The translations under genes and the position numbers were made by a program. Below, in pieces: positions 23,168 to 37,306 of a stretch of 64,000 nt of DNA; position 1 is the first letter of the stretch, and every line of letters begins with the position of its first letter. Location: NCBI GenBank assembly GCA_964603455.1, contig CAZRVL010000001.1, positions 17,031-81,030 on the forward strand. The letters run 5' to 3'. This DNA is from an uncultured Lachnospiraceae bacterium. GTDB taxonomy: Bacteria > Bacillota > Clostridia > Oscillospirales > CAG-272. The notes under the pieces are model-generated. The model worked only from the letters and a program-made list of their open reading frames with translations, was not told where the DNA came from and ran no database searches.

Positions 23168-24805
23168 TTATTTCTGCTTTTCTTCGTATATCAAGACCAC
23201 TGGAGGGCAGCAGTAATCTACATCTGCCAGATGCAGTCCTCTCTCATACGCTTCTCTGATAACAAGCATAACAATACACTCTGTAGCCGGAAGATAGCGA
23301 TACATATCGCTTACACCCTTCAAATGTTTCGGCAGCGACAGCATATTACCCTTAAGATACTCTGCATATTCTCCGCCAAGCTCAGACTTCAGTTCATCGA
23401 AGCATTTTTCGATCAATGAGCTTATCTTTTTGAAATTCTCTCGCTCAACGATCGGAATATCTACCTTCAGTTCACCATCTTCTCTGATTATAAGTCCCGT
23501 ACACTTTATGAGATCGGGGAGCTTTTCTATCATTGCGGACGATATTCCGCTGTTTTCGACTGGAAGTTTTTTGTATATACACCAGAGCAACTTTCGTATT
23601 TCATTAAAATACAGCTCATATCCGCAGACAGCGAATCTGTGTGGGTTATCCCACAGAGTCGTGTCAAATTCTACCATCTGCAAAAATTTCGCATCAAAAT
23701 GATCGCATTCACCGCCATCTGTGCGATGTCCTCCGATAACACTGTATTCCTTCACTCTATCAAGCTCCTCGCTTTGATAACCGGACGGAGTATAATATCC
23801 GCTCGCAGTCCAGCTTCCTCCGTCACGCCGATTCGGATGTCTGTATGTGCTGTTGTCTGACAGCCTGAGCTGAAAACGTTGCAATGCACAGAGCAGAAAA
23901 TAACGTTCGAGCTTCGTCCTGCTGTGAACGTTCATCTCACGAACGAAATCAAGCCGGTCGAGTTCGTTTAATCTATTCGACAAAATATTCCATATTCTGT
24001 CAAAACGTTCCTTTATAAATTTTTGCTGTGCCGGGAAATGCTGTATCAAGTCTTCCGGACGATATATTATAAAATCGGTATAATATCTTTTTCCGTCAGT
24101 CTCGACCATAAGCTCGGCATTCGTAAGTTTTCTGATAATAGGTTCAATATATACGGTCGGTATTCCGAGCGCATTTGCAAGCTCTACCGCCGTGAGCGGT
24201 CTTTCGTATGCGGATATTAGCAGATTCTGCGCTATGAGATCGTCTTCAACGCAGGACATCGGCTCACCGTGAAGTCCTTCGCTTCCGCTTATCGAAAGAT
24301 TCAGCGTTCCGGGTATATTGTTTCTTGCTTCGTTCATTTGTGTAAATCCCTCCTTGATCTTTTCGCGACCTGCCGAAAGTCTGCTCTTGACCGTTCCTGA
24401 CGGCAGACCCATATGATAAGCTATATCCGATATAGTTTGACCGTTATAGTAATAACGTATCATAACCTCACGTGTTGTTTTGGACAGATAATTTATTTCA
24501 CGTCTCACACGCTCGGCTTCCTCGATCAGTTCATCATCACCTTCATCTGCTGCAATATTATCAGCCTCGAAAATATCGACTGTCGGCGGCTGTGAATACC
24601 TCTTTCTCAGCATACTGTTAAATTTGTGCATAAACGTATTCGCAAGCCAGGTCTTCGGATATTCTATCACTCCGCCTCTTCTCAAATATGCCAAGGCATC
24701 GAGAAAGGTTTCGGACACCAGATCCTCGGCATCCTCATATGATGAGCATTTCGATTCGGCAAATCTTCGTATGTAATCATAATATTCAAGCAGTTGGTCA
24801 TCCAT
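23168..24805 (-). CDS. ECF-type sigma-70 family factor fused to a C-terminal extension of about 370 aa
   Basis: SD AAAGGAGA lies 7 nt before ATG 24805. Region 2 (YEDAEDLVSETFLDALAYL) and region 4 (GQTISDIAYHMGLPSGTVKSRLSAGREKIKEG) are present. A winged-helix-like segment (LTAVELANALGIPTVYIEPIIRKLTNAELMVE) follows, then a large unassigned domain with no TM. Confidence 0.7.
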   Translation of the reverse strand: MDDQLLEYYDYIRRFAESKCSSYEDAEDLVSETFLDALAYLRRGGVIEYPKTWLANTFMHKFNSMLRKRYSQPPTVDIFEADNIAADEGDDELIEEAERVRREINYLSKTTREVMIRYYYNGQTISDIAYHMGLPSGTVKSRLSAGREKIKEGFTQMNEARNNIPGTLNLSISGSEGLHGEPMSCVEDDLIAQNLLISAYERPLTAVELANALGIPTVYIEPIIRKLTNAELMVETDGKRYYTDFIIYRPEDLIQHFPAQQKFIKERFDRIWNILSNRLNELDRLDFVREMNVHSRTKLERYFLLCALQRFQLRLSDNSTYRHPNRRDGGSWTASGYYTPSGYQSEELDRVKEYSVIGGHRTDGGECDHFDAKFLQMVEFDTTLWDNPHRFAVCGYELYFNEIRKLLWCIYKKLPVENSGISSAMIEKLPDLIKCTGLIIREDGELKVDIPIVERENFKKISSLIEKCFDELKSELGGEYAEYLKGNMLSLPKHLKGVSDMYRYLPATECIVMLVIREAYERGLHLADVDYCCPPVVLIYEEKQK

Positions 24806-24910
24806 ACTGTTTTCTCCTTTCATGAGTATAGTCGCAAAAATATTTAAATGGTTCGGTCAAAGATCGATTTTTTATTTTCTGCTCAGATTTATATAGTTTT
24901 AATAAATCAC

Positions 24911-24939
24911 TTGACAAATATTTTACAATGTGCTATAAT
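24911..24939 (+). promoter_or_regulatory. Sigma-A type promoter of the GDPD gene
   Basis: TTGACA (24911-24916), 17 nt, TATAAT (24934-24939). Confidence 0.7.
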
Positions 24940-24996
24940 ATAAATATCTTTAATAGGATATTTTATCACCATGAAGATAACGAAAGGATAAAGCTC

Positions 24997-25764
24997 ATGA
25001 GCACATATATGAAAATGAATAAGACATGGATCTCTTCGGCACATCAGGGATTCGTTAAAGACGGTGTACACCAAAATACTCTCGCCGCATATCTTTTGGC
25101 TGCCGATAAGGGCGCGGATATGATCGAGACCGATGAAAGAACTACTAAAGACGGAATAATAGTTGCAAATCACGACCCATCTGTAAAGGCATTCAATGAA
25201 AACGGTGAATTGGTCGAATATGTCATTTCCGAAACGAATTATGAAGACATAGCAAAGCTGCGCTTTGTAAAGGGCGGCGATGATGGCTGTCGTGTCCCGA
25301 CACTTAAGGAAGTTCTCCATCTCGCATATTTCACCGGAATGTGTCTGAATATCGACCTCAAGGAAGGAATTACACATGCCGAGGAGATCGCAGAAATGGT
25401 CGTAAGTTCGGGTATGCGCGGAAGAGTCGTATATGCTACTAATGCTTCCGGAGCGGCTGCAATAAACAAGATACTCGCTATCGACCCTGATGCAAGATTC
25501 ATAGACACCAAACAGAATTATACAAGAGAAAAGTTAGCAGATGTAAAGGACTACGCTAACAAGTGCTTCGTATACACAGGTGATTTTTCGGATGAAAACA
25601 TAGCCGAAATACGTAAGAGCGGCTGTATGCTCGCGACTATTTCGCTTAATGCGGACAATGCGAAGGCGGCATTCAAGCATCATCCAGACATGGCTGAATA
25701 TCCTCACACCAGCGATTTTGAGGCTATAGACAAAGAGATACTCAATGCGGTAAAATACTGGTAA
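24997..25764 (+). CDS. Glycerophosphodiester phosphodiesterase family protein
   Basis: SD GAAAGGA lies 8 nt before ATG 24997. GDPD signature SSAHQGFVKDGVHQNTLAAY...GADMIETDERTTKDGIIVANHD. Confidence 0.75.
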   Translation: MSTYMKMNKTWISSAHQGFVKDGVHQNTLAAYLLAADKGADMIETDERTTKDGIIVANHDPSVKAFNENGELVEYVISETNYEDIAKLRFVKGGDDGCRVPTLKEVLHLAYFTGMCLNIDLKEGITHAEEIAEMVVSSGMRGRVVYATNASGAAAINKILAIDPDARFIDTKQNYTREKLADVKDYANKCFVYTGDFSDENIAEIRKSGCMLATISLNADNAKAAFKHHPDMAEYPHTSDFEAIDKEILNAVKYW

Positions 25765-25777
25765 AATATATTTTTTG

Positions 25778-25806
25778 CGGACGATCCATTCGTCCGTTTT
25801 TGTTTT
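25778..25806 (+). terminator. Rho-independent terminator
   Basis: CGGACGA-TCCAT-TCGTCCG followed by TTTTTGTTTTT. Confidence 0.75.
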
Positions 25807-25920
25807 TGGGGGCTAATTGATCACACAGAAAAACTGTAAAATTCAGGAATCTGTTTTATAACCGTCACAATAGTGTGCTAAAATGTTATCGTCGATATAC
25901 GACAGAAAGGATGATGCAAA

Positions 25921-26592
25921 TTGCAATTCAGACACGAAGTCAAGCATATGATAAATCCATATGATATGCTGATACTTAGGCAACGACTTCGAGCGGTCAT
26001 GAAAACGGACAGTCATGTGATAGGAGGAAAATACGAGATACGAAGCTTGTATTTCGACAATATATATGACAAAGCACTCCGTGAAAAACTTGATGGAGTG
26101 AATATCCGTGAAAAATACCGCATACGCCTTTACAACAACGACCCATCTGTCATACATCTCGAACGCAAATTCAAGCATGGAGATCTCGGATATAAGGATT
26201 CGGCTCTTTTGACTCCATGTGAAGCCGAGCGCATAGTAAACGGTGAGATCGAATGGATGTCCGAAAGCCAAAACGATGTAATTCTTGGATTCTACACAAG
26301 AATAAAAAACGAAGGACTTCGTGCAAAGGTGATAGTCGATTATACACGTGAGCCATTCATATATGAAGCCGGAAATGTGCGTGTGACATTGGATCACGAT
26401 ATTCGAACCGGGCTTTCCTGCAAGTCACTTCTCGATCCGAAGTGCGCAACGATACCAATAAAGGATTCGCCTGCTATACTTGAAGTCAAGTGGGATAATT
26501 TTCTGCCTGACGTAATACGTGATGCAGTACAGCTTGATTGCAGATCGGCTTCGGCATTTTCAAAATATGCCGCCTGTCGAATGTACGATTAA
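25921..26592 (+). CDS. VTC-domain (Vtc4-like polyphosphate polymerase / triphosphate-tunnel) protein
   Basis: TTG start 9 nt after SD AGAAAGGA. N-terminus MQFRHEVKH and YEIRSLYFDN are typical of bacterial VTC-domain proteins. 223 aa, soluble. Confidence 0.7.
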   Translation: MQFRHEVKHMINPYDMLILRQRLRAVMKTDSHVIGGKYEIRSLYFDNIYDKALREKLDGVNIREKYRIRLYNNDPSVIHLERKFKHGDLGYKDSALLTPCEAERIVNGEIEWMSESQNDVILGFYTRIKNEGLRAKVIVDYTREPFIYEAGNVRVTLDHDIRTGLSCKSLLDPKCATIPIKDSPAILEVKWDNFLPDVIRDAVQLDCRSASAFSKYAACRMYD

Positions 26593-26666
26593 GTCAAGCT
26601 TTCCGACACAGATCAAATTTTAACCAAGAAAGGATGCCTTTCTAAAACAAAGGCAATGGGAATAAA

Positions 26667-27338
26667 ATGTCATTCAACGATATATTCAAATCAAGTTTCC
26701 TTGAAAACGTCACGGCAGTCAGTCTGCTCGATATGTTCCTGACCATATTGCTGTCATTCGGCATAGGTCTATTCATATTCCTCATATACAAAAAAACTTA
26801 TCGCGGCGTTATGTATTCCGCAAGCTTCGGCACTACTCTCGTTGCTCTGACAATGATAACCTCTGTCGTTATCCTCGCCGTTACATCTAATGTAGTATTA
26901 TCACTCGGTATGGTCGGTGCATTGTCGATAGTTCGTTTTCGTACCGCTATCAAAGAACCGCTCGATATAGCATTTTTATTCTGGTCTATCGGTGCGGGTA
27001 TCGTGCTTGCCGCAGGAATGATACCGCTTGCCGTAATAAGCAGCGTTATAATAGGCATCGTACTCCTCGTCTTTGTAAACAAAAAATCATATTCGCATCC
27101 ATACATGGTCGTGCTGAACTGCTGCGATCATGAGAGCGAAACACGTGCGGCTGAGTTTCTAAATAAAAATGTGATAAAGAGTGTTGTCAAGAGCAAATCA
27201 GCTGTAAAGGGTGCGGTTGAATTAAATATCGAAGTAAGATTAAAGGATGACAACACAGATTTCGTAAGTACGCTTTCCGAAATGCAGGGTGTGAACAGCG
27301 CAGTTATTGTTTCCTACAACGGCGAATATATGGGATAG
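26667..27338 (+). CDS. DUF4956-type membrane protein
   Basis: Four N-terminal TM helices including the conserved VGALSIVRFRTAIKEPLDIAFLFWSIGAGI, plus a soluble tail of about 85 aa. It is the middle gene of the VTC/CotH triad. Confidence 0.6.
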   Translation: MSFNDIFKSSFLENVTAVSLLDMFLTILLSFGIGLFIFLIYKKTYRGVMYSASFGTTLVALTMITSVVILAVTSNVVLSLGMVGALSIVRFRTAIKEPLDIAFLFWSIGAGIVLAAGMIPLAVISSVIIGIVLLVFVNKKSYSHPYMVVLNCCDHESETRAAEFLNKNVIKSVVKSKSAVKGAVELNIEVRLKDDNTDFVSTLSEMQGVNSAVIVSYNGEYMG

Positions 27339-27341
27339 ATC

Positions 27342-29282
27342 ATGTCACAAAGCAAACATTTTGAAAAGTTCGCGTGGAGCGTGACAGCTCTGATGCTAGT
27401 CATCACGATATTATTTATGAACGGAAGCTCGCTCGGAATACAGGTATCGGCACGTACTATGGGCTATGAGACGAGATTATTCGACAATTCAAGAATGCAC
27501 ACCATAGATATTGTTATGGATGACTGGGACGATCTAATTGCAAATGCCGCCGATGAAGAATATTATAACGCAAGCATAGTTATAGACGGAGAGGCATATA
27601 AAAATGTCGGAATACGCGCAAAAGGCAATACTTCCCTCTCAAACGTTGCCTCAATGGGAAGCGAACGCTACAGCTTAAAGATCGAATTTGACCACTATGA
27701 CAGCACAAAGACCTATTACGGACTCGATAAGCTCTGTCTCAACAATCTAATTCAGGATTCGACTATGATGAAGGACTATCTGACATATACTCTGATGAAC
27801 GAATTTGGAGTAAATGCACCACTGTGCAGCTTTACATACATCACAGTAAACGGCAATGACTGGGGAATGTATCTCGCGGTAGAAGGAATCGAGGATGCCT
27901 TTCTGACGAGAAATTACGGTTCTGACCACGGCGAGCTATATAAACCCGACAGCATGAGCTTCGGCGGCGGCAGAGGGAACGGCAAAGATTTCGACATGAA
28001 TGAGATAATGGAAAATTTTGATTTTTCGGACGTATCTATGCCACAGTTTCCAAACAGCATGGCTGACGGTGATATGCAAATGTATCGTGAAAGCGGCGAT
28101 ATGAAAAACGATATGGGAAATATCGAGCCGCCGAATATGAATAGCGGTATACCGCAGATGTCAGATACAGATCTTCCGAATCTCGAAGATACGAAAGAAA
28201 ATGATCTCGGAGATTTGTCATTTGGCGGAAAAGACCTCGGTAAAGCCGATCACAGAGAAATGGGCGGATTCGGCGGTGGAATGGGTTCATCAGATGTAAA
28301 GCTGCAATATATAGATGATGAGCTTGATAGCTATTCAAATATATGGGACAATGCAAAGACAAATATTTCCGAAGCCGATAAAAAGCGGTTGATTGAGTCC
28401 TTAAAATCATTATACGAATATGACAACATAGAAGATGTCGTTGACATTGATGGCGTTCTAAAATATTTCGTAGTACACAATTATGTCGTGAACGGTGACA
28501 GCTACACCGGCTCGATGGTACACAACTACTATCTCTATGAAAAAGATGGTCAGCTTTCGATGATACCATGGGATTACAACCTCGCATTCGGTACATTTGC
28601 CGGCGGTAATGCGTCTTCAACCGTCAACGAGCCGATAGATTCTCCCACATCAGATCCCGATGACCGACCGATGTGGGGATGGATATTGTCTGATGAAAAA
28701 TACACCGAAATGTATCACGAATACTTTTCGGAATTACTTAAGATAGATATTTCACAGATAATCGACAGCGCATATGAGCTTATAAAGGATTATGTCGAAA
28801 AAGACCCGACAAAATTCTATGACTATGATGAATTTGAAAAGGGCGTATCGACTTTGCGCGAATTTTGTAAGCTTCGCAGCGAAAGCATAGAAATACAGCT
28901 CGAAAACAACGAAACTTACGAAGCTATGAATTATTCAGATGCTTCGCATATAACGCTTTCGGATATGGGTTCGATGGATATGGGCAAAAACACCAATATG
29001 AATGAAATGCCGAATATTGGTCAGATGCTGCCCGAAGGCTTCAGAGCAGATGGCTCTAACGGTGAGATACCGAACGATACGGCGCGAAATGACCGAAGTG
29101 ACAAAAATTTCGATAATTTTGAAAAAGATCAAAAGCAAGAACGCTTTGAAGGCATGAATACACCCGATATGCAGCTTCCGAACGGTTCTCGGACAGTATC
29201 TAATGTAAATTCATGGATACTTGTCGGAATATCCTTTGCTGTGCTTTGTATCGGAATAATCATTGCAAAAATCCACAAATAG
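27342..29282 (+). CDS. CotH-family atypical kinase-like protein, membrane-anchored at both ends
   Basis: It starts 4 nt after the DUF4956 stop. N-terminal TM (FAWSVTALMLVITILFM) and C-terminal TM (WILVGISFAVLCIGIIIA). CotH-like core (YSLKIEFDHY, MMKDYLTYTLMNEFGV, GELYKPD, HNYYLYEKDG...WDYNLAFG). Confidence 0.7.
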   Translation: MSQSKHFEKFAWSVTALMLVITILFMNGSSLGIQVSARTMGYETRLFDNSRMHTIDIVMDDWDDLIANAADEEYYNASIVIDGEAYKNVGIRAKGNTSLSNVASMGSERYSLKIEFDHYDSTKTYYGLDKLCLNNLIQDSTMMKDYLTYTLMNEFGVNAPLCSFTYITVNGNDWGMYLAVEGIEDAFLTRNYGSDHGELYKPDSMSFGGGRGNGKDFDMNEIMENFDFSDVSMPQFPNSMADGDMQMYRESGDMKNDMGNIEPPNMNSGIPQMSDTDLPNLEDTKENDLGDLSFGGKDLGKADHREMGGFGGGMGSSDVKLQYIDDELDSYSNIWDNAKTNISEADKKRLIESLKSLYEYDNIEDVVDIDGVLKYFVVHNYVVNGDSYTGSMVHNYYLYEKDGQLSMIPWDYNLAFGTFAGGNASSTVNEPIDSPTSDPDDRPMWGWILSDEKYTEMYHEYFSELLKIDISQIIDSAYELIKDYVEKDPTKFYDYDEFEKGVSTLREFCKLRSESIEIQLENNETYEAMNYSDASHITLSDMGSMDMGKNTNMNEMPNIGQMLPEGFRADGSNGEIPNDTARNDRSDKNFDNFEKDQKQERFEGMNTPDMQLPNGSRTVSNVNSWILVGISFAVLCIGIIIAKIHK

Positions 29283-29299
29283 AATATCAAAATAAGACA

Positions 29300-29330
29300 G
29301 CACCTCAAAAGTAAAATGCTTTTGGGGTGC
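29300..29330. terminator. Bidirectional terminator
   Basis: GCACCTCAAAAG-7 nt-CTTTTGGGGTGC, a 12-bp stem with one G-U pair, between the convergent CotH and SGNH genes. Confidence 0.7.
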
Positions 29331-29349: not shown

Positions 29350-30072
29350 TCATTCACAGAGCATAGTTTTTAGCAGCTCATATGCAAACATCCAATGAAG
29401 CTCACGTGTCGGATGATTTGCGTGATTTGACAAAAGTCTATTGGTATCAACTCCGCCTTCAGCCATCTTTTGCCAGATCAAATTGCAATCACATATTTTC
29501 ACATCAAGCTCTTCAGCTGTTTTTCTTCCGAGTTCAAGATATTTTTCAAGCCATCCGTCTCGTTCATTTTCGCTGATTGAGCGTATACAGCTCTCAAGTA
29601 TCTTGTCGCTGTCCTTATAATCGGCATAATTACACCTGAGATTCGGAGTCATGAATATCGCTTCAGCACCGCTGTTTTGTATCCTTTTGAATATTTCCTT
29701 AAGAGATTCTCCGTACCTTTCAAGCTCGGTTTCCTTTCTTCCGGCATCATTCAGACCATAGCATACAACTACAAGATCCGGAGAAAAGCTGAGAACATCG
29801 AGTTCGAGCCTTGCAAGTCCGTTCCAAGAGGTATCACCGCTAATTCCGGCATTTATAATGTTTACCGATACTGACGGATATATTATAGCGAGAAGGCTTT
29901 TGAGCTTTGACGAATAAGCTTCATCGGGATAAAATGTAGTCTTGACCTGTCCGTTTTCACTGTATATCTCAAAGCAGCCCTGAGTCACACTGTCTCCCAA
30001 AAAGGCTATCACCGGCTGTCGGCAGGAATTTAAATTGCTCTGCTTTTCCTTGAAACGTTCGATTATCTTCAT
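29350..30072 (-). CDS. SGNH/GDSL-type hydrolase (esterase)
   Basis: Start MKIIERF at 30072 forms an ATGA overlap with the upstream stop. Block I is FLGDSVTQG and block III is CYGLNDAG. Confidence 0.7.
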   Translation of the reverse strand: MKIIERFKEKQSNLNSCRQPVIAFLGDSVTQGCFEIYSENGQVKTTFYPDEAYSSKLKSLLAIIYPSVSVNIINAGISGDTSWNGLARLELDVLSFSPDLVVVCYGLNDAGRKETELERYGESLKEIFKRIQNSGAEAIFMTPNLRCNYADYKDSDKILESCIRSISENERDGWLEKYLELGRKTAEELDVKICDCNLIWQKMAEGGVDTNRLLSNHANHPTRELHWMFAYELLKTMLCE

Positions 30073-32072
30073 ATGAATAATTCCTCCATTCCCCAATCGG
30101 ATAAGAATATTACCGCGAATGCATAGCACAAATGGAAGAGCGAGGTGTTCCATTTCGAAGCTTTTCCCCACGCTTCAATTGTCGTGGTATGACCTTCGGC
30201 GATCATATTCAGCCATCTGGAATCGTTTTTGATCATTTCGCAAATAAGATCATTTCGTCCGAGTCTTTTAAGTCCGGTCATCGATGCAAAGGTCATAAAG
30301 AATGCCGAGGAAGTTGCCGGCTTGCTCATGATCATATCTACTATATTATTCATAGTCTCATCATTAGGACAAAGCCCCATTGCGAGTGCCATAGCATTTG
30401 ACGGTAACGCACAATGTCCACTTTCTGGCGAATCGCGGAATAGATTTTTCTCCGGGCAGAAGAATGTGGCTCTATAAGCTTTCACAAGCTCATCGGTATC
30501 TCGATATATCGGACGACCGAGCTTTTTCGCGATCTTATTTAACGAATTTATCGCGCCTATATAATATGCGTTTATGACATTGTGTGTTCCGACTGCTACT
30601 TTCCCCTCTGTAAGGTCAAAATCATATGAATCGCGTGCTTCCTGCGGCCAATCTACCACACACCATTTGTCAAGATCGTACAAAAGATGATCTTCACGCT
30701 CATATTCGGTTCTGTATGCGTCAAGCACAGCTGCAACACGGTCGAAATTCTCTGCAGCGAAATCAGTATTGCCGGATATATGTATCTGTGCAAGCAAAAG
30801 CTCTGGAAGCATCAGGACATATTCTGCGATCTCCTGCATGAATGAACAGGGCGAACAGGTCATAAGAGTCGGAGTTATAAAGGCTGTGTCGAGCGCATTC
30901 GTGATCATTTTTTCCATCATAGAGGTGTCATCAGTAAGTATCGCAAGCGCAGTACTCGTATATGAGCCGTCACCGAGATATTGTCCCTTCTCACGCTCCA
31001 TACAGTCCTGAATGACCTCTTGAACACCGTATTTTAAGGAATGCACACAAAGCTCCCATACAGCCTTTAACTTCGGATCGTCATATGCACATCCACGTTT
31101 TGCTTCGAACGGATAATGACGTGAAATAAATGCGATCTCACTTATCTCGCACCCTTCAGGAAGGATAAGCTCCATATATCTGAATGACATATAATCATAT
31201 TGATCAAATCTGTCAACCCTGCCCGAAAGCACCATTTCTTCTTCATATGTACAGTTCGCACGGAGCTTATAGCGGACATTGCCGTCATCATTCAGCTCCT
31301 GCCCACATAATAATTTCAGTGTCTCACCTGCTTTTCCAACCGCATTAAAGATAGGGTATCCAACATACTGACTTCCGAAATCGACCATAAGCCCATTATC
31401 TGTTTTTTGAACAGATATCGGAGCTATGATCTCAAAATCGAGTGGTTTTGTAGGCTGTTCAATAAATTTGTAGTCTGCATATTCGTTGATAGCTGAATCA
31501 GACCAATAAGAATCATCGTATTCGGGCTGTTCGAAGCCTATCTCGGCTGAACGGCAATCGTACATCTCCATGAACTGCGTATCATATCCGACCTTGCCTA
31601 TCACATGATAAGCTGTATGGATAGTGCATTTTGTCTTCTCGGAGCTTTTTGCTTTCAGAACACCATCCTCGAATATGTCATATATAAGCCCATGCCGATT
31701 GTCCGCACTGCACCATACGCGGTTCACGAGTCCCTGATAGTATGTGTGGAATGCAACGGTATTTTTTCCCTTACGGACATGATCGGTTATATCAACCTTC
31801 ATATAGTAATATTTGAAATCGAAGCCCGGAGCAGGACCTTGAGTTACAAAGTTTCCGTTTATATAGAGCTTGAAATAATCATCGGCTGTGAGATATATGT
31901 ATACTTTTCCACCGTTATACTCAAAGCTGTCTCTAAAAAGTATATGCTGATCCTGCGGCATATCGCCGGGCGCAGGAGCTTTTTCAAGCTGCCTGTGCCA
32001 AAGCTTTACCGGTTTGAAGTCCTTTAAAGACGGATGTGTTATAAGCCTTCCGTCAAAGATATGGTTTTCCAT
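30069..32072 (-). CDS. Alpha-L-rhamnosidase-like (GH78-type six-hairpin) glycoside hydrolase, cytoplasmic
   Basis: Rhamnosidase-N-like segment (YFKLYINGNFVTQGPAPGFDFKYYYMKVDITDHVRKGKNTVAFH) followed by a large alpha/alpha-toroid-sized region. No signal peptide. Confidence 0.6.
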   Translation of the reverse strand: MENHIFDGRLITHPSLKDFKPVKLWHRQLEKAPAPGDMPQDQHILFRDSFEYNGGKVYIYLTADDYFKLYINGNFVTQGPAPGFDFKYYYMKVDITDHVRKGKNTVAFHTYYQGLVNRVWCSADNRHGLIYDIFEDGVLKAKSSEKTKCTIHTAYHVIGKVGYDTQFMEMYDCRSAEIGFEQPEYDDSYWSDSAINEYADYKFIEQPTKPLDFEIIAPISVQKTDNGLMVDFGSQYVGYPIFNAVGKAGETLKLLCGQELNDDGNVRYKLRANCTYEEEMVLSGRVDRFDQYDYMSFRYMELILPEGCEISEIAFISRHYPFEAKRGCAYDDPKLKAVWELCVHSLKYGVQEVIQDCMEREKGQYLGDGSYTSTALAILTDDTSMMEKMITNALDTAFITPTLMTCSPCSFMQEIAEYVLMLPELLLAQIHISGNTDFAAENFDRVAAVLDAYRTEYEREDHLLYDLDKWCVVDWPQEARDSYDFDLTEGKVAVGTHNVINAYYIGAINSLNKIAKKLGRPIYRDTDELVKAYRATFFCPEKNLFRDSPESGHCALPSNAMALAMGLCPNDETMNNIVDMIMSKPATSSAFFMTFASMTGLKRLGRNDLICEMIKNDSRWLNMIAEGHTTTIEAWGKASKWNTSLFHLCYAFAVIFLSDWGMEELFI

Positions 32073-32089
32073 AAATTACACCTTATATT

Positions 32090-33544
32090 TTATTCAGACA
32101 TCATATTCATAAATGAGTCGATCTCTGCCTGCGCTCCCTCAGCATACTGCTCATACCACGAAGCAAAATCTGTGCTGTTATTTATGCAGACAAGCTCCTC
32201 AAGCGTGTAGAACAGCTTCATCATGTTAGTTCCGAAGCCGAAATAGTTCATTCCCGCGTCATATACGATATTGTCGAATATAATATCCATCATAGCTGCT
32301 GAATCATCATCGCGTGACAGCTTTCCGACAAGCGTAACATCATAATATGCGGGGATAGTGGTCTTCTGACTGATATAGCTCATATAATCGATGACCTTCG
32401 CGACCATTTCGGGATTCTTTATAGATGCAGGTATACACATAAGAGAGCCCCAGTCATTTGTATAATAGTTGTCCTGTGCTTCATCGTATTTCGGAAATGG
32501 AAGTATGCCGAAATCAACATCGCTGTCTCGAAAATCGTATATCTGATAGAGAGGATACCATTGGAAGAGCGAACGTCCGCTGTCCATATTTATCTGCACG
32601 GATTTATCGTTCACGTAAGCATACGACCAGATATAGATCGATTGGTCGTTGTTAAGTGCTTTATTGAATTTTTCAATTATGTCTATAGTTTTTTCGCTGT
32701 AGTATGCCAACTCAAAGCCATCATCATTCTTATCTGCAAGGAATATGTCACATGCATATGGAATGCAGTTGAGTATCCAGTTACCGAGTCCGGTGATGCC
32801 GTATTGATCATTCACGTCCATAGTCGAATCGCCGTTAATATCGACTGTCGCTTTTTCAGCCATCTCATACATTTTATCGAAAGTCCATGTTCCATCGTAT
32901 ACAAGCTTATATGGATCTTCCATTCCGAAATCGGTTATCATGTCCTTATTGAACAATATGCAGCATGGATTTGCTATCATGTAATCCGAAACAGCATAAT
33001 ATTGCTTATCTCCGAGAGAGAGCGCATCGTTGAAGTTTCGGTTGTAATAATCCTTTGAGAAGTCAATATACGGCAGCTCGTTCCAATCGTAAAGGCTTCC
33101 GCTCGTCAGCATATCAGATACACCGCGTATACAGTGCGGAAGAGCCAATTGGAAGGAATCGTCTCCGGCAGCTACTGTCTGCTGCACCGTACTTGCAAGA
33201 TCACGATGTGTCGGAACGATATAGTTTTCTATCTCGACACCAAGATAATCTTCGGTCATGAGCTCACGCTCATATATCGCATCATTCATACGGTCGCCGT
33301 TCGCTTCCTCAGCAAAGAAATATTCATCATAGAAAGGAAGCTCGAATGCGAGTATAGTGAATTTCTCACCGCCGAAATCAGATCTTTCAAAATCCGGAGT
33401 ATCAGCAGCCTTTGTACCGCTATCAGAGTTCGAAGCAGAGCTATCGCTTGATGCTTCGGTATTTTCTCCGTTTTCGTTATTGCCGCATGAGAACGCGGAA
33501 AGCAACATGGACGCTAAAAGTATCAGGGTTATCGCTCTTTTCAT
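32090..33544 (-). CDS. Solute-binding-protein-type lipoprotein, paralog 3
   Basis: SD GAAAGGA precedes ATG 33544; the track start 33562 is a TTG inside the SD. Lipobox LSAFSCGN. Motifs FGILPFPKYDEAQDNY and YYDVTLVGKLSRDDDSAAMMDIIF. Confidence 0.6.
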   Translation of the reverse strand: MKRAITLILLASMLLSAFSCGNNENGENTEASSDSSASNSDSGTKAADTPDFERSDFGGEKFTILAFELPFYDEYFFAEEANGDRMNDAIYERELMTEDYLGVEIENYIVPTHRDLASTVQQTVAAGDDSFQLALPHCIRGVSDMLTSGSLYDWNELPYIDFSKDYYNRNFNDALSLGDKQYYAVSDYMIANPCCILFNKDMITDFGMEDPYKLVYDGTWTFDKMYEMAEKATVDINGDSTMDVNDQYGITGLGNWILNCIPYACDIFLADKNDDGFELAYYSEKTIDIIEKFNKALNNDQSIYIWSYAYVNDKSVQINMDSGRSLFQWYPLYQIYDFRDSDVDFGILPFPKYDEAQDNYYTNDWGSLMCIPASIKNPEMVAKVIDYMSYISQKTTIPAYYDVTLVGKLSRDDDSAAMMDIIFDNIVYDAGMNYFGFGTNMMKLFYTLEELVCINNSTDFASWYEQYAEGAQAEIDSFMNMMSE

Positions 33545-33580
33545 TTTGATATTTCCTTTCAATGAAAAATTATTTTTAGA

Positions 33581-34153
33581 TCATTCGGGTCTATCTTCAA
33601 GAGTGAGCTCGTAATCTCCGAGATGCTTGACCTTGAAGCCGTTTTTCTTATATTCGTTGTAATCGAAAGCTTCGAGCTCATCGATAGCTAATTTGTGGAA
33701 CTCATAGAAATTGTGCCACCATTCATAGCCGCTGCCAAGCTCTGCACCAAGGTAAGCATCCGCTATATCGCAGCCCATCTTCGGCGCAACATAAAACGCC
33801 CCCATCGCCAGAACATTTACACCGTTTCCTGTTATTGCGCGAAGCGCAGCAGGAACACTTTCGACCACTCCGGCATGTACGTGCGGACACTTTGAGGCCG
33901 CGATATGTATACCCATTCCGGTACCGCAAAATATGAGTGCGCGCTCAAATTCCCCTTCTGAAATCATCGAACCGACTCTGAGTCCAACTCTGTGGAACAT
34001 AAGATCGGTATCGTTCGGATCTGAATCGGCACGAACTCCGACATCGGTTATTTTCCACCCCTTCTTTTTCAGATGCTCTACGACCGCCTCCTTCAGCGGA
34101 TAGCCGGCGAAATCCGCACCGACCAAAAGCTCCTTTTCTTTGATGGTTTTCAT
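33581..34153 (-). CDS. RpiB/LacA/LacB family sugar-phosphate isomerase with a C-terminal extension of about 40 aa
   Basis: GADFAGYPLKEAVVEHLKKKGWKITDVG and active-site region IFCGTGMGIHIAASK. 190 aa, against about 150 for canonical RpiB. Confidence 0.75.
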   Translation of the reverse strand: MKTIKEKELLVGADFAGYPLKEAVVEHLKKKGWKITDVGVRADSDPNDTDLMFHRVGLRVGSMISEGEFERALIFCGTGMGIHIAASKCPHVHAGVVESVPAALRAITGNGVNVLAMGAFYVAPKMGCDIADAYLGAELGSGYEWWHNFYEFHKLAIDELEAFDYNEYKKNGFKVKHLGDYELTLEDRPE

Positions 34154-34207
34154 AAGATTACCTCTGCTTTCTCTCCGTTCGGAGTATTTTTTATTCCGAC
34201 CATATGG

Positions 34208-35209
34208 TCAAAATATATTTACTGTGGAATTTCTCTCTATAACCTCTGTCGGAATACGTATCTTTTCATATTCCGAGCTTTTTTCCGAGATCAGTTTTTT
34301 TATTAGCTCAGCGGTATTCAATGCGAGAGCCTTTATATCCTGTCTCACGGTCGTAAGAGGTATCGGAGATGTGATAGAGAATATACTGTCATCGAAGCCT
34401 GCAACAGATACTGTTTCGGGTATTTTTATCCCGGCAGAGACCAGACGGTTAACTACTCCGAGCGCAACGAAATCATTTACACACACGATAGCATCCGGCG
34501 GTGACTTAATGAATTTTTCAGCGGCATCGAAGGCTGCCGTATAGTCGATCTTATCAATGCAAACTATTTCAAAATCGACATTTTCGTTAAGCGATTCGAT
34601 AAATGCCTTGGTTCGACAGTCTATCGTCCATGTTCCCGAAAGTCCGGTCATGTATGCTACTCTTTTCGGGAATCTTGAAAGTATCTTTTCCACAAGGCTG
34701 TGCATTCCGCTTTCAAGATCACAGTACACACAGCTCATATCCTCGATAAAGGTAGTCGCGCATACCGTGGGAATATCCGAAGTCTTCAACAGCTTAAGTG
34801 ATGCCGAAAGGTCAAGCGGCAGATTTATAGGAACATAGATTATTCCCTCTACCTTTGAAGCTATCATATCACGTATCGCTCGTTCCTCCTTTGTAGGCGA
34901 GTTTGACGAGATGAATATCGAAAGTGAGAATCCGATCTCCGAAACTCGGTCTGAAAGCTCCTTTACAAACGAGGAATAATATATATTTTCAATATCCGGA
35001 ACTACCAGACCGAGCATTCCGCTTTTCTGCCTGACAAGTCGTCTTGCATAAAGATTTGGAACATATCCGAGCTCATCAGCAACTTTTTTTATAAGCTCCC
35101 GCGTTTCGAGCTTAACAAGAGAATTTCCGTTGAGAGCCAATGAAACCGTGGCTTCGGACATATTGACTGCCTTAGCTATGTCACATATAGTAACCGATCT
35201 TTTTGCCAT
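34208..35209 (-). CDS. LacI family transcriptional regulator
   Basis: SD GGAGG lies 5 nt before ATG 35209 (MAKRSVTICDIAKAVNMSEATVSLALNG, the HTH), followed by a periplasmic-binding-fold effector domain. Confidence 0.85.
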   Translation of the reverse strand: MAKRSVTICDIAKAVNMSEATVSLALNGNSLVKLETRELIKKVADELGYVPNLYARRLVRQKSGMLGLVVPDIENIYYSSFVKELSDRVSEIGFSLSIFISSNSPTKEERAIRDMIASKVEGIIYVPINLPLDLSASLKLLKTSDIPTVCATTFIEDMSCVYCDLESGMHSLVEKILSRFPKRVAYMTGLSGTWTIDCRTKAFIESLNENVDFEIVCIDKIDYTAAFDAAEKFIKSPPDAIVCVNDFVALGVVNRLVSAGIKIPETVSVAGFDDSIFSITSPIPLTTVRQDIKALALNTAELIKKLISEKSSEYEKIRIPTEVIERNSTVNIF

Positions 35210-35227
35210 ATGAACCTCCGTCTTAAA

Positions 35228-35243
35228 TTTAAAACGTTTCAAA
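35228..35243. promoter_or_regulatory. Candidate LacI-family operator in the lacI-type gene leader
   Basis: TTTAAAACGTTTCAAA is a 16-bp palindrome with one mismatch centred on CG, matching the TGAAACGTTTCA-type half-sites of LacI/CcpA-family operators. It lies between the predicted -10 and the SD. Confidence 0.45.
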
Positions 35244-35266
35244 AATATTGTATAAACTATATTAAA

Positions 35267-35295
35267 ATTATATCATTTAATCTCAGATTTGTCAA
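35267..35295 (-). promoter_or_regulatory. Sigma-A type promoter of the lacI-rpiB-SBP-GH-esterase operon
   Basis: Minus strand reads TTGACA (35295-35290), 17 nt, TATAAT (35272-35267). Confidence 0.65.
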
Positions 35296-35401
35296 TCATT
35301 AAAGCGCATAAAATATATAATCATATATAAATATTTATGCGTATAATCGCCTATATCAACATTAAAAATCAATTTTTTAAAACAGGCTCTAATAACATAC
35401 A

Positions 35402-35437
35402 AAAAGACAGCTCCATCATTAAGTGAAGCTGTCTTTT
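35402..35437 (-). terminator. Rho-independent terminator about 160 nt downstream of the GH stop
   Basis: AAAAGACAGCT-loop-AGCTGTCTTTT with A/T-rich flanks. Confidence 0.65.
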
Positions 35438-35596
35438 AAATCTATTTCGAAGATTTTTGTTTTTTCGCTCATTCAGCATTGACTACCAAGCCAACTTTTA
35501 GAACACCGGCTCTGCATTTGCGAAATCAGTTCATTTTAATTATTTTCAGGACATAGCTTTTCAGCAGTCGCCGAGCTGAACATCGGTTCATTTAAT

Positions 35597-37306
35597 TTAT
35601 CTTACTATTTCGATCTCAGACGGAGCGTTTATCTCGACTTTGCCATCCTTATCGGCATATATCTCGACCTTACCGAATGGTGTCGGATATGTTCCGCGGA
35701 TCCAATCGAGTCCGCAGAGATCCGGTTTAATTTCGAGCTTCTTGCAGCCTGCTTCGAGTATCTTGACACCGAGCACATGACGTGCAATGAATATGCACGG
35801 ACCGGATGACCAACCATGGCAAAGGCTATGGCGAAGTCCCGTGTAGCAGTATTTACCGAAATCTGCGTGTATATCCTTTTCGCCTTCGGGAACTATCTCA
35901 TCGATTCTGTGTGCATCCCACACTCCGTTTTCATCGGTAGTCCAATCGAGGTCAAAATCCTCCCAGAAGGTAGTCGCACCGAGCTTGAGCATAGCACCGT
36001 AGTATTCCTTCATATCCGCAAGAGCCTCTTTCGTCTTTCCTGCCATTGCGCGAGCCGACAGTATATAATATGAATAATATGTAGAATATCCGTGCGCACC
36101 GTTTTTCGAAATGATCTCCTCATCGACAGTCTTAGGATCTGCGATACCCGAAAGAGCAAGCAGCGATGAAGCCGATTTTGCCTTAAGTGCCGGAACGTGT
36201 TTCTTCATGCGTTCAACTGTATCATGGCAGAGCGCGGCAAGCTCATCCTCACCGAATATTCCGCAAAATTCCGCACAGGTATCTATAGCCATCGAAAGAA
36301 GTCCCTGAAGTCCGCATGCCTTTGCTTCAGGATCATCGTTCGTAGGCCAGTCAAGGAATCTCCAATCGGGAATATTTTCCTTTCCGTTTTCATCAACGAG
36401 CGAGCAAAGCACCGGAGCTATCGAGGTTATGTAATCCTTCTGCTCATTGAGATACTCGACATTTCCGTTCTGGAGGTAGTAATCGCGCTGACACATTATC
36501 CACCAGAGAGTATATGAGGGGATATTGTTCATCCAGTGAGGCTTTGAATTTGACCAGTCTGTAGGATTTCTTGCAAGCTCGGGGTCTATCGGAGTTATAT
36601 CTCTGACCGAATCAAGGCTTCTCGAAACGACCTCGTTGTCACCGAAGACAGAGCATATCGTCATGACTTCGGGGTGCATATCGCCTATCCAAACAAGACG
36701 GTCACGCTTTATGCCGTCCCACATATATTCCTGCATATTGAGGTGAGCGGTGTATGCGGCAGTATCGTATATTTTAGTGATCTCGCTGTCCGAGCAGTCG
36801 AACGAACCAACATAATCTATATCGCGGATTATGAGCACACCTTCGATAGCCTTGAGTGCAAGTTCTTCGCCCTCAACAAGCTCTATGCAGACAAATCTGA
36901 AGCCGGATTCATTTGTATCTGTTCCGGAATAGCCGCTCAAAGAGAGTCTGAAATCGCGGTTTGCATGGTCATTGGTCGAACCTCTTTCAGTTACAGGAGT
37001 TAGAGCCTCTGTGACCGATTCGCCGAGTCTTACATTGACGGTAACTCTTTTAGGCTTTACCCATTGAGCCAATATTCTGATGCTTCCGTGGATCTCGCGT
37101 CCGAAATCGACAAGTATCATCGCACCATTTTTAAGAACCGTGCAGTGCGAAGCATCAAACGAGATCTGACCTATGCGGTCTTCAAGCATCTCCTCGGGGT
37201 TTTGAATATCGCCTGCCGTCTTGACTATTCTTGTGGGGCGAAGATAATATCTTGTACGCGGATCTGTATCAAATGTATGCAGACCGAATTTATCTGTGAG
37301 TTTCAT
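35597..37306 (-). CDS. Rhamnosidase-like (GH78-type) six-hairpin glycoside hydrolase, cytoplasmic
   Basis: C-terminal signature SLCHGWSSGPCIFIARHVLGVKILEAGCKKLEIKPDLCGLDWIRGTYPTPFGKVEI is typical of the rhamnosidase catalytic/C-terminal junction. No signal peptide. Confidence 0.55.
   Translation of the reverse strand: MKLTDKFGLHTFDTDPRTRYYLRPTRIVKTAGDIQNPEEMLEDRIGQISFDASHCTVLKNGAMILVDFGREIHGSIRILAQWVKPKRVTVNVRLGESVTEALTPVTERGSTNDHANRDFRLSLSGYSGTDTNESGFRFVCIELVEGEELALKAIEGVLIIRDIDYVGSFDCSDSEITKIYDTAAYTAHLNMQEYMWDGIKRDRLVWIGDMHPEVMTICSVFGDNEVVSRSLDSVRDITPIDPELARNPTDWSNSKPHWMNNIPSYTLWWIMCQRDYYLQNGNVEYLNEQKDYITSIAPVLCSLVDENGKENIPDWRFLDWPTNDDPEAKACGLQGLLSMAIDTCAEFCGIFGEDELAALCHDTVERMKKHVPALKAKSASSLLALSGIADPKTVDEEIISKNGAHGYSTYYSYYILSARAMAGKTKEALADMKEYYGAMLKLGATTFWEDFDLDWTTDENGVWDAHRIDEIVPEGEKDIHADFGKYCYTGLRHSLCHGWSSGPCIFIARHVLGVKILEAGCKKLEIKPDLCGLDWIRGTYPTPFGKVEIYADKDGKVEINAPSEIEIVR

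Follow-up and report, generated by a model that had tools for sequence, protein, structure and literature searches.

Organization of the locus

The subject of this analysis is a group of three adjacent genes in a 64,000-nucleotide stretch of DNA from an uncultured Lachnospiraceae bacterium (GenBank assembly GCA_964603455.1, contig CAZRVL010000001.1, positions 17,031 to 81,030 of the forward strand), hereafter called the window. The genes encode a VTC-domain protein, a DUF4956 membrane protein and a CotH-family protein; all three lie on the + strand, and according to the listing of open reading frames (ORFs) the gaps between them measure 74 nt and 3 nt. An initial annotation had delimited this trio, set it between two terminators and proposed that the first two proteins form a split polyphosphate (polyP) synthase and channel that supplies the third. 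Its ORFs, coordinates and gaps match the listing exactly, hairpins with T-runs are present on both flanks, and all three of its domain calls were upheld by a search with hidden Markov models. The genes and their boundaries are as follows:

25777-25797, + strand: terminator-like hairpin (8-bp stem with 5 GC pairs) followed by the T-run TTTTTGTTTTT; it ends the upstream glycerophosphodiester phosphodiesterase (GDPD) gene and forms the 5' operon boundary
25921-26592, + strand: VTC-domain gene, 223 aa, TTG start (Pfam PF09359)
26667-27338, + strand: DUF4956 gene, 223 aa (Pfam PF16316)
27342-29282, + strand: CotH-family gene, 646 aa (Pfam PF08757)
29300-29330, + strand: terminator-like hairpin with 14-bp stem and T-run; 3' operon boundary

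Each of the three families is represented by one copy in the 64-kb window, and the GC content is uniform across the trio region. Several metagenome assemblies, independent of one another, contain the identical locus, and its flanks are the same too wherever the contigs are long enough.

Conservation of the gene trio

The initial annotation had itself stated that its proposal would fall if the three genes were not co-conserved across genomes; two independent scans found them together. The first scan was anchored on the VTC gene and comprised 80 loci, one genome per species, with 57-76% VTC identity; with a single exception, they come from gut, rumen or similar Clostridia-type metagenome-assembled genomes. 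Its search patterns were taken from 12 closer VTC sequences, as an earlier and more diverse alignment gave no usable patterns. The second scan was anchored on a DUF4956 consensus and comprised 80 loci on metagenome contigs; its CotH genes were called with a broad CotH model, an earlier clade-specific one having missed divergent CotH genes.

VTC and DUF4956 are same-strand neighbours, in this order, in 78/78 first-scan loci with downstream sequence and in 74/74 second-scan loci with upstream sequence. CotH adjoins the pair in 70/74 evaluable loci of the first scan, where the median gap between DUF4956 and CotH amounts to 10 nt, and in 66/80 loci of the second, the remainder being mostly truncated contigs with one clear negative. 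Both gene orders occur in the second scan: VTC-DUF4956-CotH in 52 loci and CotH-VTC-DUF4956 in 13. From these adjacency counts it follows that VTC→DUF4956 constitutes the invariant core and CotH a near-constant third member, and because the trio recurs this often in genomes as well as in metagenomes, its arrangement is not a product of chance.

The VTC-domain protein

The first protein of the trio matches PF09359 with 126.6 bits (cut-off 23; E=1.5e-36) over profile positions 1-230 of 235. A profile built from 35 diverse VTC homologues was compared with solved structures: the best match was Vtc4 (3g3q, E=2e-11), and Vtc4, Vtc2 and Vtc3 were the sole matches at E<=1, a range in which CYTH, thiamine triphosphatase and CyaB-type enzymes were absent. 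In the profile alignment (full-length Vtc4 numbering), the Vtc4 residues R196, K200, R264, R266, E279, K281, K294, R361, R373 and D377 correspond, in this order, to R4, K8, R67, R69, E81, K83, K92, R143, R154 and D158 of the window protein; a weaker second alignment stretch places Vtc4 E426/K428 and S457/K458 opposite E188/K190 and S214/K215. These window residues are the putative tunnel residues, and they occupy columns that are invariant or at least 90% conserved in the alignment of the 35 homologues. The functional weight of such positions is illustrated by the Vtc4 mutant R264A/R266A/E426N, which is catalytically impaired (PMC9911596). One position departs from this correspondence: the bacterial proteins carry a near-invariant glutamate, E6, where Vtc4 has Thr198.

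The AlphaFold2 model of the protein contains many long strands and was obtained with a predicted local distance difference test (pLDDT) score of 94.2 and a predicted template modelling (pTM) score of 0.90. Neither a transmembrane (TM) segment nor an SPX domain was detected by hydropathy analysis and Pfam search, respectively. The description of the protein as soluble and Vtc4-like thus stands, and the alignment suggests that it is probably a cytoplasmic polyP polymerase. Its family is large: in a library made up of representatives of 50%-identity clusters, 4,085 matches were counted at E<=0.001.

Ten homologues (P0194, P0214, P0227, P0236, P0243, P0244, P0261, P0265, P0266 and P0156) carry N-terminal extensions of 140-270 aa without Pfam match. 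The five of these extensions that were inspected look disordered and have a high content of Lys, Arg, Pro, Glu and Gln; the long homologues were therefore rejected as VTC-membrane fusions, their extensions being disordered and basic and not membrane domains. The only protein that combines both families, P0240 (371 aa), was likewise rejected as a natural VTC-DUF4956 fusion: It consists of a truncated VTC domain (aa 2-170), a truncated DUF4956 domain (aa 168-270) and an unrelated tail, looks chimeric and is probably the result of a deletion or an assembly chimera.

The DUF4956 membrane protein

The second protein matches PF16316 with 43.6 bits (cut-off 30.6; E=3.4e-11), as do all 58 aligned DUF4956 homologues. 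The initial annotation had described it as a four-TM protein; the AlphaFold2 model (pLDDT 73.8, moderate confidence) instead contains five helices, at aa 20-44, 52-72, 76-93, 98-115 and 119-137, followed by a C-terminal beta-alpha-beta-beta-alpha-beta domain that is ACT-like. The following features were assigned:

aa 20-137, nt 26724-27077, + strand: five predicted TM helices (AlphaFold2)
nt 26910-26966, + strand: invariant motif M82-V-G-x-L-S-x-x-R90-F-R92-x-A-x-K96-x-x-x-D100, cytoplasmic face
aa 146-216, nt 27102-27314, + strand: C-terminal ACT-like domain (AlphaFold2, Foldseek)

The hydropathy blocks and the positive-inside pattern agree with the five-helix model. Positive charges are concentrated in the loops 42-51, 90-97 and 138-140, and the other two loops have none; this distribution argues for an N-out, C-in topology, by which the ACT-like domain would be located in the cytoplasm, beside the VTC protein. 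R90, R92 and K96 are placed at the cytoplasmic end of helix 3. No other protein of the trio is as conserved as DUF4956 (65-81% identity among relatives, compared with 57-76% for VTC), and its MVGxLSxxRFRxAxKxxxD core is invariant across Clostridia, Bacilli and Bacteroidota.

The idea that this protein recreates the membrane domain of the VTC complex does not hold in terms of homology: A Vtc1-like membrane domain was excluded by the five helices, the ACT-like domain and the fact that matches in the PDB concern the C-terminal domain only. The signals point to the MgtC superfamily instead. In a Foldseek search against the PDB, the only matches were ACT- and ferredoxin-like folds aligned with the C-terminal domain; second in rank was the C-terminal domain of Mycobacterium tuberculosis MgtC (2lqj; TM-score 0.67 on the target). 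The window protein matches the NCBIfam model MgtC/SapB with E=1.8e-6 and 27.7 bits, far under the curated cut-off of 214, and gives no match to the Pfam MgtC model (PF02308) at E<=0.05; that model is matched by 30/58 members of the DUF4956 family (best E=1.2e-5). Sequence and predicted fold, weak but consistent in their signals, hence suggest that DUF4956 belongs to the MgtC superfamily, and the same conclusion has been drawn in the literature for SIR_1592 (PMC12345266). Some DUF4956 homologues bear the name YhiD in the Joint Genome Institute (JGI) annotation.

A second setting of the family was found in four Hymenobacter genomes with different flanks (L083:6739-9979; L089 and L090:5835-9089; L176:3828-7077; L177:3856-7050). 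Here, DUF4956 is the middle gene of a three-gene unit, between a membrane-fusion-like protein and a TolC-like outer-membrane efflux protein. The upstream protein of ~360 aa has an N-terminal anchor and a coiled-coil-like region; it lacks a Pfam match, and its matches to HlyD, DevB, CzcB and RND membrane-fusion adaptors are weak but consistent and lie under the curated cut-offs (best: HlyD, E=1.3e-9). A profile comparison excluded that it is a divergent VTC protein. DUF4956 thus takes the position of the inner-membrane transporter in a tripartite-efflux-like operon, which hints at a transport role.

The CotH-family protein

The third protein matches PF08757 with 199.7 bits (E=1.1e-58) in two stretches that are separated by an insert of ~100-115 aa, and it directly matches the solved Bacillus cereus CotH structure 5jd9 (E=3.4e-10). 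Its parts are:

aa 1-37, nt 27342-27452, + strand: signal peptide with basic n-region, 17-residue hydrophobic core and VSA|R cleavage-type site
about aa 45-205, + strand: N-lobe
about aa 206-320, nt 27957-28301, + strand: variable insert, acidic and rich in Met and Gly
aa 321-520, + strand: C-lobe with D386, H394-N395 and D411
aa 521-618, + strand: disordered linker
aa 621-642, nt 29202-29267, + strand: C-terminal TM segment (hydropathy), followed by a KIHK tail

The NFD and PWD motifs of 5jd9 are the aligned counterparts of D386 and D411, which are kept in 49/65 and 57/65 sequences, respectively. The counterpart of D386 is the catalytic D228 of Bacillus subtilis CotH, and both the HN motif (H394-N395) and the PWD motif (D411) are present and conserved. 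D411 is aligned with D251, which we take to be the metal-binding Asp of the PWD motif; this assignment reportedly stems from the CotH structure of Nguyen et al. in 2016. For D228, a D228Q mutant of the B. subtilis enzyme is described as catalytically inactive (PMC7821199).

Hydrophobic segments are located at both ends (residues 10-28 and 621-642), the N-terminal one being present in 64/64 complete homologues and the C-terminal TM segment in 50/64. Because of the signal peptide and the C-terminal anchor, the bulk of the protein is predicted to be outside the cell regardless of whether the signal peptide is cleaved, in line with the topology first proposed for it. The insert and the linker preceding the anchor differ widely among the 64 complete homologues.

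Genomic contexts and comparison with known systems

The trio is not a new observation; it has already been described (PMC2879425; bioRxiv 10.1101/768473 = PMC7112168; PMC12345266). It is carried by the NELoc-2 locus of Clostridium perfringens, in which the membrane protein is annotated as 'tubulin/FtsZ' (PMC2879425), and cotH, 'PPP' and DUF4956 genes have been reported as accessory genes of Gram-positive pel operons (10.1101/768473). In Streptococcus intermedius, deletion of the DUF4956 and CotH genes lowers Pel-dependent aggregation, and the authors of that study state that the synteny of the trio is absent outside pel loci (PMC12345266). The searchable literature contains no experimental function for the trio, in agreement with what had been said of it at the outset, and the mechanistic idea of the initial annotation was not met in the literature found.

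Four contexts can be distinguished. In the first, which includes the window, the trio stands alone: In 70 related loci, the four closest genes on either side show no recurrence of polysaccharide genes in general or of pel-type genes in particular, and at the window trio itself no pel-type or other polysaccharide gene was found from 8 kb upstream to 10 kb downstream. The second is a seven-gene operon encoding a protein of 285-308 aa, VTC, DUF4956, CotH, a protein of ~700 aa without Pfam or NCBIfam match, a HEAT-repeat protein and a chitin-synthase-like GT2 glycosyltransferase. It was found in a Planococcus plasmid, in Paraclostridium and in one JGI metagenome contig (L082:4470-12824; L092 and L093:6435-14793; L094:7268-14689), and NELoc-2 agrees with it from the VTC gene onward. 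Its first gene product has a weak AP_endonuc_2/TIM-barrel match, and this gene is absent in the metagenome contig L094. In the third context, CotH-VTC-DUF4956 lies within Wzy- or glycosyltransferase-rich polysaccharide clusters of Butyrivibrio and Pseudobutyrivibrio, and the fourth is formed by the published pel operons (10.1101/768473; PMC12345266). The restriction of the synteny to pel loci is contradicted by the window and by many relatives without pel genes. In the clade of the window the trio is present on its own, often beside a two-component system; in more distant lineages it is part of exopolysaccharide loci.

Compared with the pel accessory genes of S. intermedius (SIR_1594-1592), the window has the same three families side by side, with a secreted CotH, a cytoplasmic VTC protein and a membrane DUF4956 protein with ACT domain. 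It differs in gene order (VTC-DUF4956-CotH versus CotH-VTC-DUF4956), in having neither pel genes nor a DUF4832 gene nearby, and in its CotH protein, which has a C-terminal TM anchor and an acidic insert instead of an FN3 domain. NELoc-2 shares with the window the order VTC, ~225-aa membrane protein, CotH (PMC2879425), and in the matching operons of Planococcus, Paraclostridium and the JGI contig the middle gene is DUF4956. The window lacks the downstream genes for the ~700-aa protein (685 aa in NELoc-2), the HEAT-repeat protein and the chitin-synthase-like GT2 enzyme; moreover, the CotH protein of NELoc-2 is shorter (497 aa versus 646 aa), and its VTC-membrane protein pair is duplicated with a resolvase gene between the copies. 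A tandem duplication CotH-VTC-DUF4956-CotH-VTC-DUF4956 was also observed in a metagenome locus (L153:3350-9637); it resembles the NELoc-2 pair of VTC and 'tubulin' (probably DUF4956) around the resolvase gene.

The yeast VTC complex (Vtc4/Vtc3/Vtc1) provides another point of reference. Common to both systems are a homologous tunnel domain with its aligned catalytic residues kept, the constant presence of a small polytopic membrane partner next to the polymerase, and basic residues at the cytoplasmic membrane face. In yeast, three-TM VTC domains form a pentameric channel and SPX domains serve regulation (PMC9911596). Pfam, hydropathy, AlphaFold2 and Foldseek all indicate that the window trio does not have this architecture: Its polymerase is a free-standing protein of 223 aa without SPX domain and without a fused three-TM domain. 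It carries E6 at the position of Vtc4 Thr198, and the putative destination of the product is the cell exterior rather than the vacuole lumen.

With the Ser/Thr kinase CotH of Bacillus (5jd9/5jda), the window protein shares the Pfam domain, the structural match given above, the D228 counterpart and the PWD motif. The Bacillus enzyme acts on the spore coat, and in vitro it uses ATP (PMC7821199); the window protein, by contrast, is predicted to face the outside of the vegetative cell by virtue of its signal peptide and anchor, has no cotB/cotG neighbours and contains an insert of ~115 aa between its lobes. MgtC/SapB/YhiD proteins resemble DUF4956 in their architecture, with five predicted TM helices and, after these, an ACT-like domain in the cytoplasm; the sequence and fold matches are weak but consistent. 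DUF4956 differs from them as a separate Pfam family with its own invariant core, obligately paired with VTC in Firmicutes-type loci and with membrane-fusion and TolC-like partners in Hymenobacter; we know of no enzymatic or transport partner of such kind for MgtC. The MgtC/SapB/YhiD family has been functionally tied to phosphate and ATP homeostasis (PMC7980370).

Control elements and neighbouring genes

Upstream of and within the window operon, three further elements were assigned:

25855-25884, + strand: candidate sigma-70-type promoter with TTTATA, 18-nt spacer, TG and TAAAAT (consensus match only)
about 10 nt 5' of the TTG start of the VTC gene, + strand: candidate ribosome-binding site AAAGGA (consensus match only)
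26635-26655: palindromic stem-loop TGCCTTT, 7-nt loop, AAAGGCA in the VTC-DUF4956 spacer (26593-26666), reported on the - strand by the hairpin search

The stem-loop is not followed by a T-run on the + strand, and the minimum-free-energy fold of the spacer contains another hairpin that overlaps it. One of its arms contains the sequence AAAGG, and the element might influence how well the DUF4956 message is translated or how stable it is.

In relatives, the trio is frequently accompanied by genes of a two-component system: an OmpR-family response regulator (~230 aa) in 27/70 loci and a HisKA histidine kinase with two TM segments (~410 aa) in 35/70. These genes are located upstream of VTC, co-directional or divergent (for example L024:5152-6384 and L029:7304-7996), and the external region of the kinase, ~125 aa long, gave no Pfam match in the one representative that was scanned. 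In addition, a search of the 200 nt upstream of the VTC start in loci L001-L080 revealed a direct repeat, TTCACA-N5-TTCACA (<=2 mismatches), in 29/79 relatives as opposed to 2.3% of shuffled sequences. The box is found mostly 75-160 nt 5' of the VTC start and mostly on the + strand (for example L007, L016, L041 and L078); in the relatives inspected it lies between the stop codon of the histidine kinase and a hairpin. We take it to resemble PhoP/OmpR-type boxes, and it gives a hint of environmental, possibly phosphate-linked, control. The window trio has neither the two-component system nor the box, the best candidate in the window having four mismatches, which corresponds to chance level.

The neighbours of the window trio are, according to the window annotation, unrelated genes. 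Directly upstream, the phosphate-related GDPD gene (24928-25764) has its own promoter and terminator. A perfect consensus promoter precedes it at 24911-24939 (TTGACA, 17-nt spacer, TG, TATAAT); because the annotated ATG at 24928 falls inside this promoter, the true start is probably further downstream. Divergent from this gene, a 551-aa sigma-70-family protein is encoded on the - strand (23168-24823), with regions 2 and 4 in its first ~160 residues and a subsequent extension of ~390 aa without Pfam match; NELoc-2 likewise starts with a sigma-factor gene, two genes 5' of its VTC gene. Downstream, the - strand of 29350-37306 encodes a GDSL hydrolase, two rhamnosidase-family proteins, a LacAB/RpiB-family isomerase and a LacI-type regulator, together with an ORF of 484-490 aa with a lipoprotein-like N-terminus and no Pfam match. 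Such a gene set suits an organism that degrades plant polysaccharides, and the closest relatives of the trio occur in gut and rumen Clostridia.

Proposed mechanism and alternatives

We propose that the trio is an envelope phosphorylation module in which polyP synthesis is coupled to export and feeds a CotH enzyme at the cell surface, a reading to which we assign a probability of roughly 0.4. Catalysis would be initiated by the VTC protein, which may polymerize polyP from ATP at the cytoplasmic face of the membrane, as the kept catalytic residues of Vtc4 suggest. In the next step, a DUF4956 oligomer would take up the nascent chain at a ring of R90, R92 and K96 and pass polyP or phosphoryl groups outward; its cytoplasmic ACT-like domain could dock or gate the polymerase. 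CotH, secreted and in this clade tethered by its C-terminal TM segment, would finally use the exported polyP as donor or substrate and phosphorylate a surface polymer, perhaps an exopolysaccharide or a protein. A polymerase in the cytoplasm and an enzyme outside are linked most economically by something that crosses the membrane, which directs attention to DUF4956 as the only membrane-spanning component. Export via DUF4956 is proposed by analogy, not homology, with the yeast channel: The isolated Vtc4 tunnel domain is slow, and the yeast complex couples synthesis to a Lys/Arg-lined channel (PMC9911596). A second analogy concerns the donor. Eukaryotic Fam20-type kinases depend on ATP that is imported into the Golgi lumen; no such ATP supply exists at a Gram-positive surface, and the VTC/DUF4956 pair might fill this gap. 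Both CotH and these secretory kinases act outside the cytosol, and CotH is described as a distant relative of the Fam20C family (PMC7821199).

What the data establish comprises the identification of the three proteins at the sequence level, the retention of the aligned catalytic residues, the predicted topology and the strict gene linkage. Circumstantial support for the translocase idea comes from the strict VTC-DUF4956 pairing and the Hymenobacter operon; the recurrence of the trio inside polysaccharide loci and the aggregation defect of the S. intermedius DUF4956 and CotH deletions (PMC12345266) are circumstantial for the module as a whole. In its most specific form, with VTC and DUF4956 as a dedicated polyP synthase-exporter and a surface CotH that draws phosphoryl groups from exported polyP rather than from ATP, the proposal appears doubtful to us.

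Several observations weigh against a coupled module. We know of no protein-kinase-fold enzyme that uses polyP as donor. The searchable literature holds no activity reports for bacterial VTC proteins, DUF4956 or CotH proteins of the triad type. E6 in place of Thr198 could mean that the chemistry of the bacterial VTC proteins differs. The membrane partner, a five-TM MgtC-superfamily protein with ACT-like domain, bears no resemblance to Vtc1, and its model, of moderate confidence, gave no Foldseek match in the PDB over the TM region and none to any Vtc protein. As the Hymenobacter operons contain DUF4956 without a VTC gene, the family is not dedicated to polyP. Four first-scan loci consist of a VTC-DUF4956 pair with no CotH gene within about 8-10 kb. 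Characterized members of the MgtC superfamily are regulators that act via protein contacts, not known channels (PMC7980370; PMC12345266), and the preprint of PMC12345266 suggests that polyP may stay cytoplasmic.

The last points lead to a reading without export, which we consider somewhat unlikely: DUF4956 would be an MgtC-like regulator or anchor of the VTC protein with an ACT sensor, polyP would not leave the cytoplasm, where it would buffer phosphate, energy or stress, and CotH would act separately on environmental ATP, the gene linkage reflecting co-regulation in a surface or phosphate-stress programme. Besides the published suggestion of cytoplasmic polyP, this is favoured by the MgtC-superfamily signals of DUF4956, by the YhiD name of some homologues, by the regulatory functions of known MgtC proteins with their ties to phosphate and ATP homeostasis (PMC7980370; PMC12345266), by the existence of pairs without CotH, and by the two-component system and TTCACA-N5-TTCACA box adjacent to the trio in relatives, which speak for environmental control. 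It leaves unexplained, however, why polymerase and CotH remain neighbours in ~95% of loci, under two gene orders and across no fewer than three unrelated polysaccharide contexts, as well as the transporter position of DUF4956 in Hymenobacter, and the extracellular kinase would then depend on an unreliable external ATP source. The pairing and export evidence serves equally well for a scheme that we regard as rather unlikely, in which polyP is exported as an end product, a polyanion of the surface or matrix that binds cations or host factors, and CotH uses ATP or binds and positions the polymer. The general kinase motifs of the Bacillus enzyme, an ATP user, are retained in CotH; the variable acidic, Met/Gly-rich insert and the linker of CotH could bind cations; and secretion or accumulation of extracellular polyP is reported for some bacteria (PMC10653871, PMC12772234). 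Against this scheme, the conserved catalytic motifs argue for an enzymatic role of CotH that is genetically tied to the pair, and the tight linkage would go unaccounted for if CotH were independent.

A further possibility concerns the VTC protein itself, which could catalyze another tunnel reaction, namely hydrolysis of tri- or polyphosphate or nucleotide cyclization, so that the trio would serve signalling or scavenging. The ExExK motif is typical of hydrolytic CYTH enzymes, and the position of its second Glu is that of the near-invariant E6, where Vtc4 has Thr198; the absence of the SPX and TM domains of Vtc4 and the glycerophosphodiesterase gene directly upstream in the window can be read in the same direction. 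Yet the solved-structure matches of the profile at E<=1 are confined to Vtc4, Vtc2 and Vtc3, the first Glu position of ExExK is occupied by an arginine (R4) as in Vtc4 (R196), and the mutated Vtc4 residues R264, R266 and E426 have invariant aligned counterparts. Moreover, the neighbour survey did not find the glycerophosphodiesterase gene to recur beside the trio in relatives. We hold such a different chemistry to be very improbable. The mechanistic idea of the initial annotation, a coupling of polyP synthesis and export to a surface CotH enzyme, is plausible and directly testable.

Implications

The window locus is one more case of a described trio. New here are its occurrence beyond pel loci, the obligate character of the VTC-DUF4956 pair, the five-TM MgtC-superfamily assignment of DUF4956 with its invariant basic motif on the cytoplasmic face and its transporter-like position in Hymenobacter, and the frequent dedicated two-component system and conserved upstream box in the clade of the window. 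We know of no dedicated bacterial polyP exporter. A 2023 review maps Vtc4 across eukaryotes only and gives PPK1 as the principal polyP enzyme of bacteria (PMC10657179), and despite the 4,085 matches no characterized bacterial VTC protein of this family was found in the searchable literature.

If the coupled model is true, it bears on a bacterial VTC-type polyP synthase, on the route by which polyP leaves the cell and on the phosphoryl donor of an outer kinase in Gram-positive bacteria: The trio may move phosphate-bond energy out of the cell, and if polyP is indeed the donor, monoderm bacteria would have a means of phosphorylating exopolysaccharides or surface proteins extracellularly. Should DUF4956 prove to be a regulator instead, its strict pairing with VTC would nonetheless mean that the MgtC superfamily has a defined partner enzyme. 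The module has relevance for hosts and biofilms, as it is carried by Clostridia of gut and rumen, by streptococcal pel loci and by a C. perfringens locus that is associated with strains from necrotic enteritis (PMC2879425).

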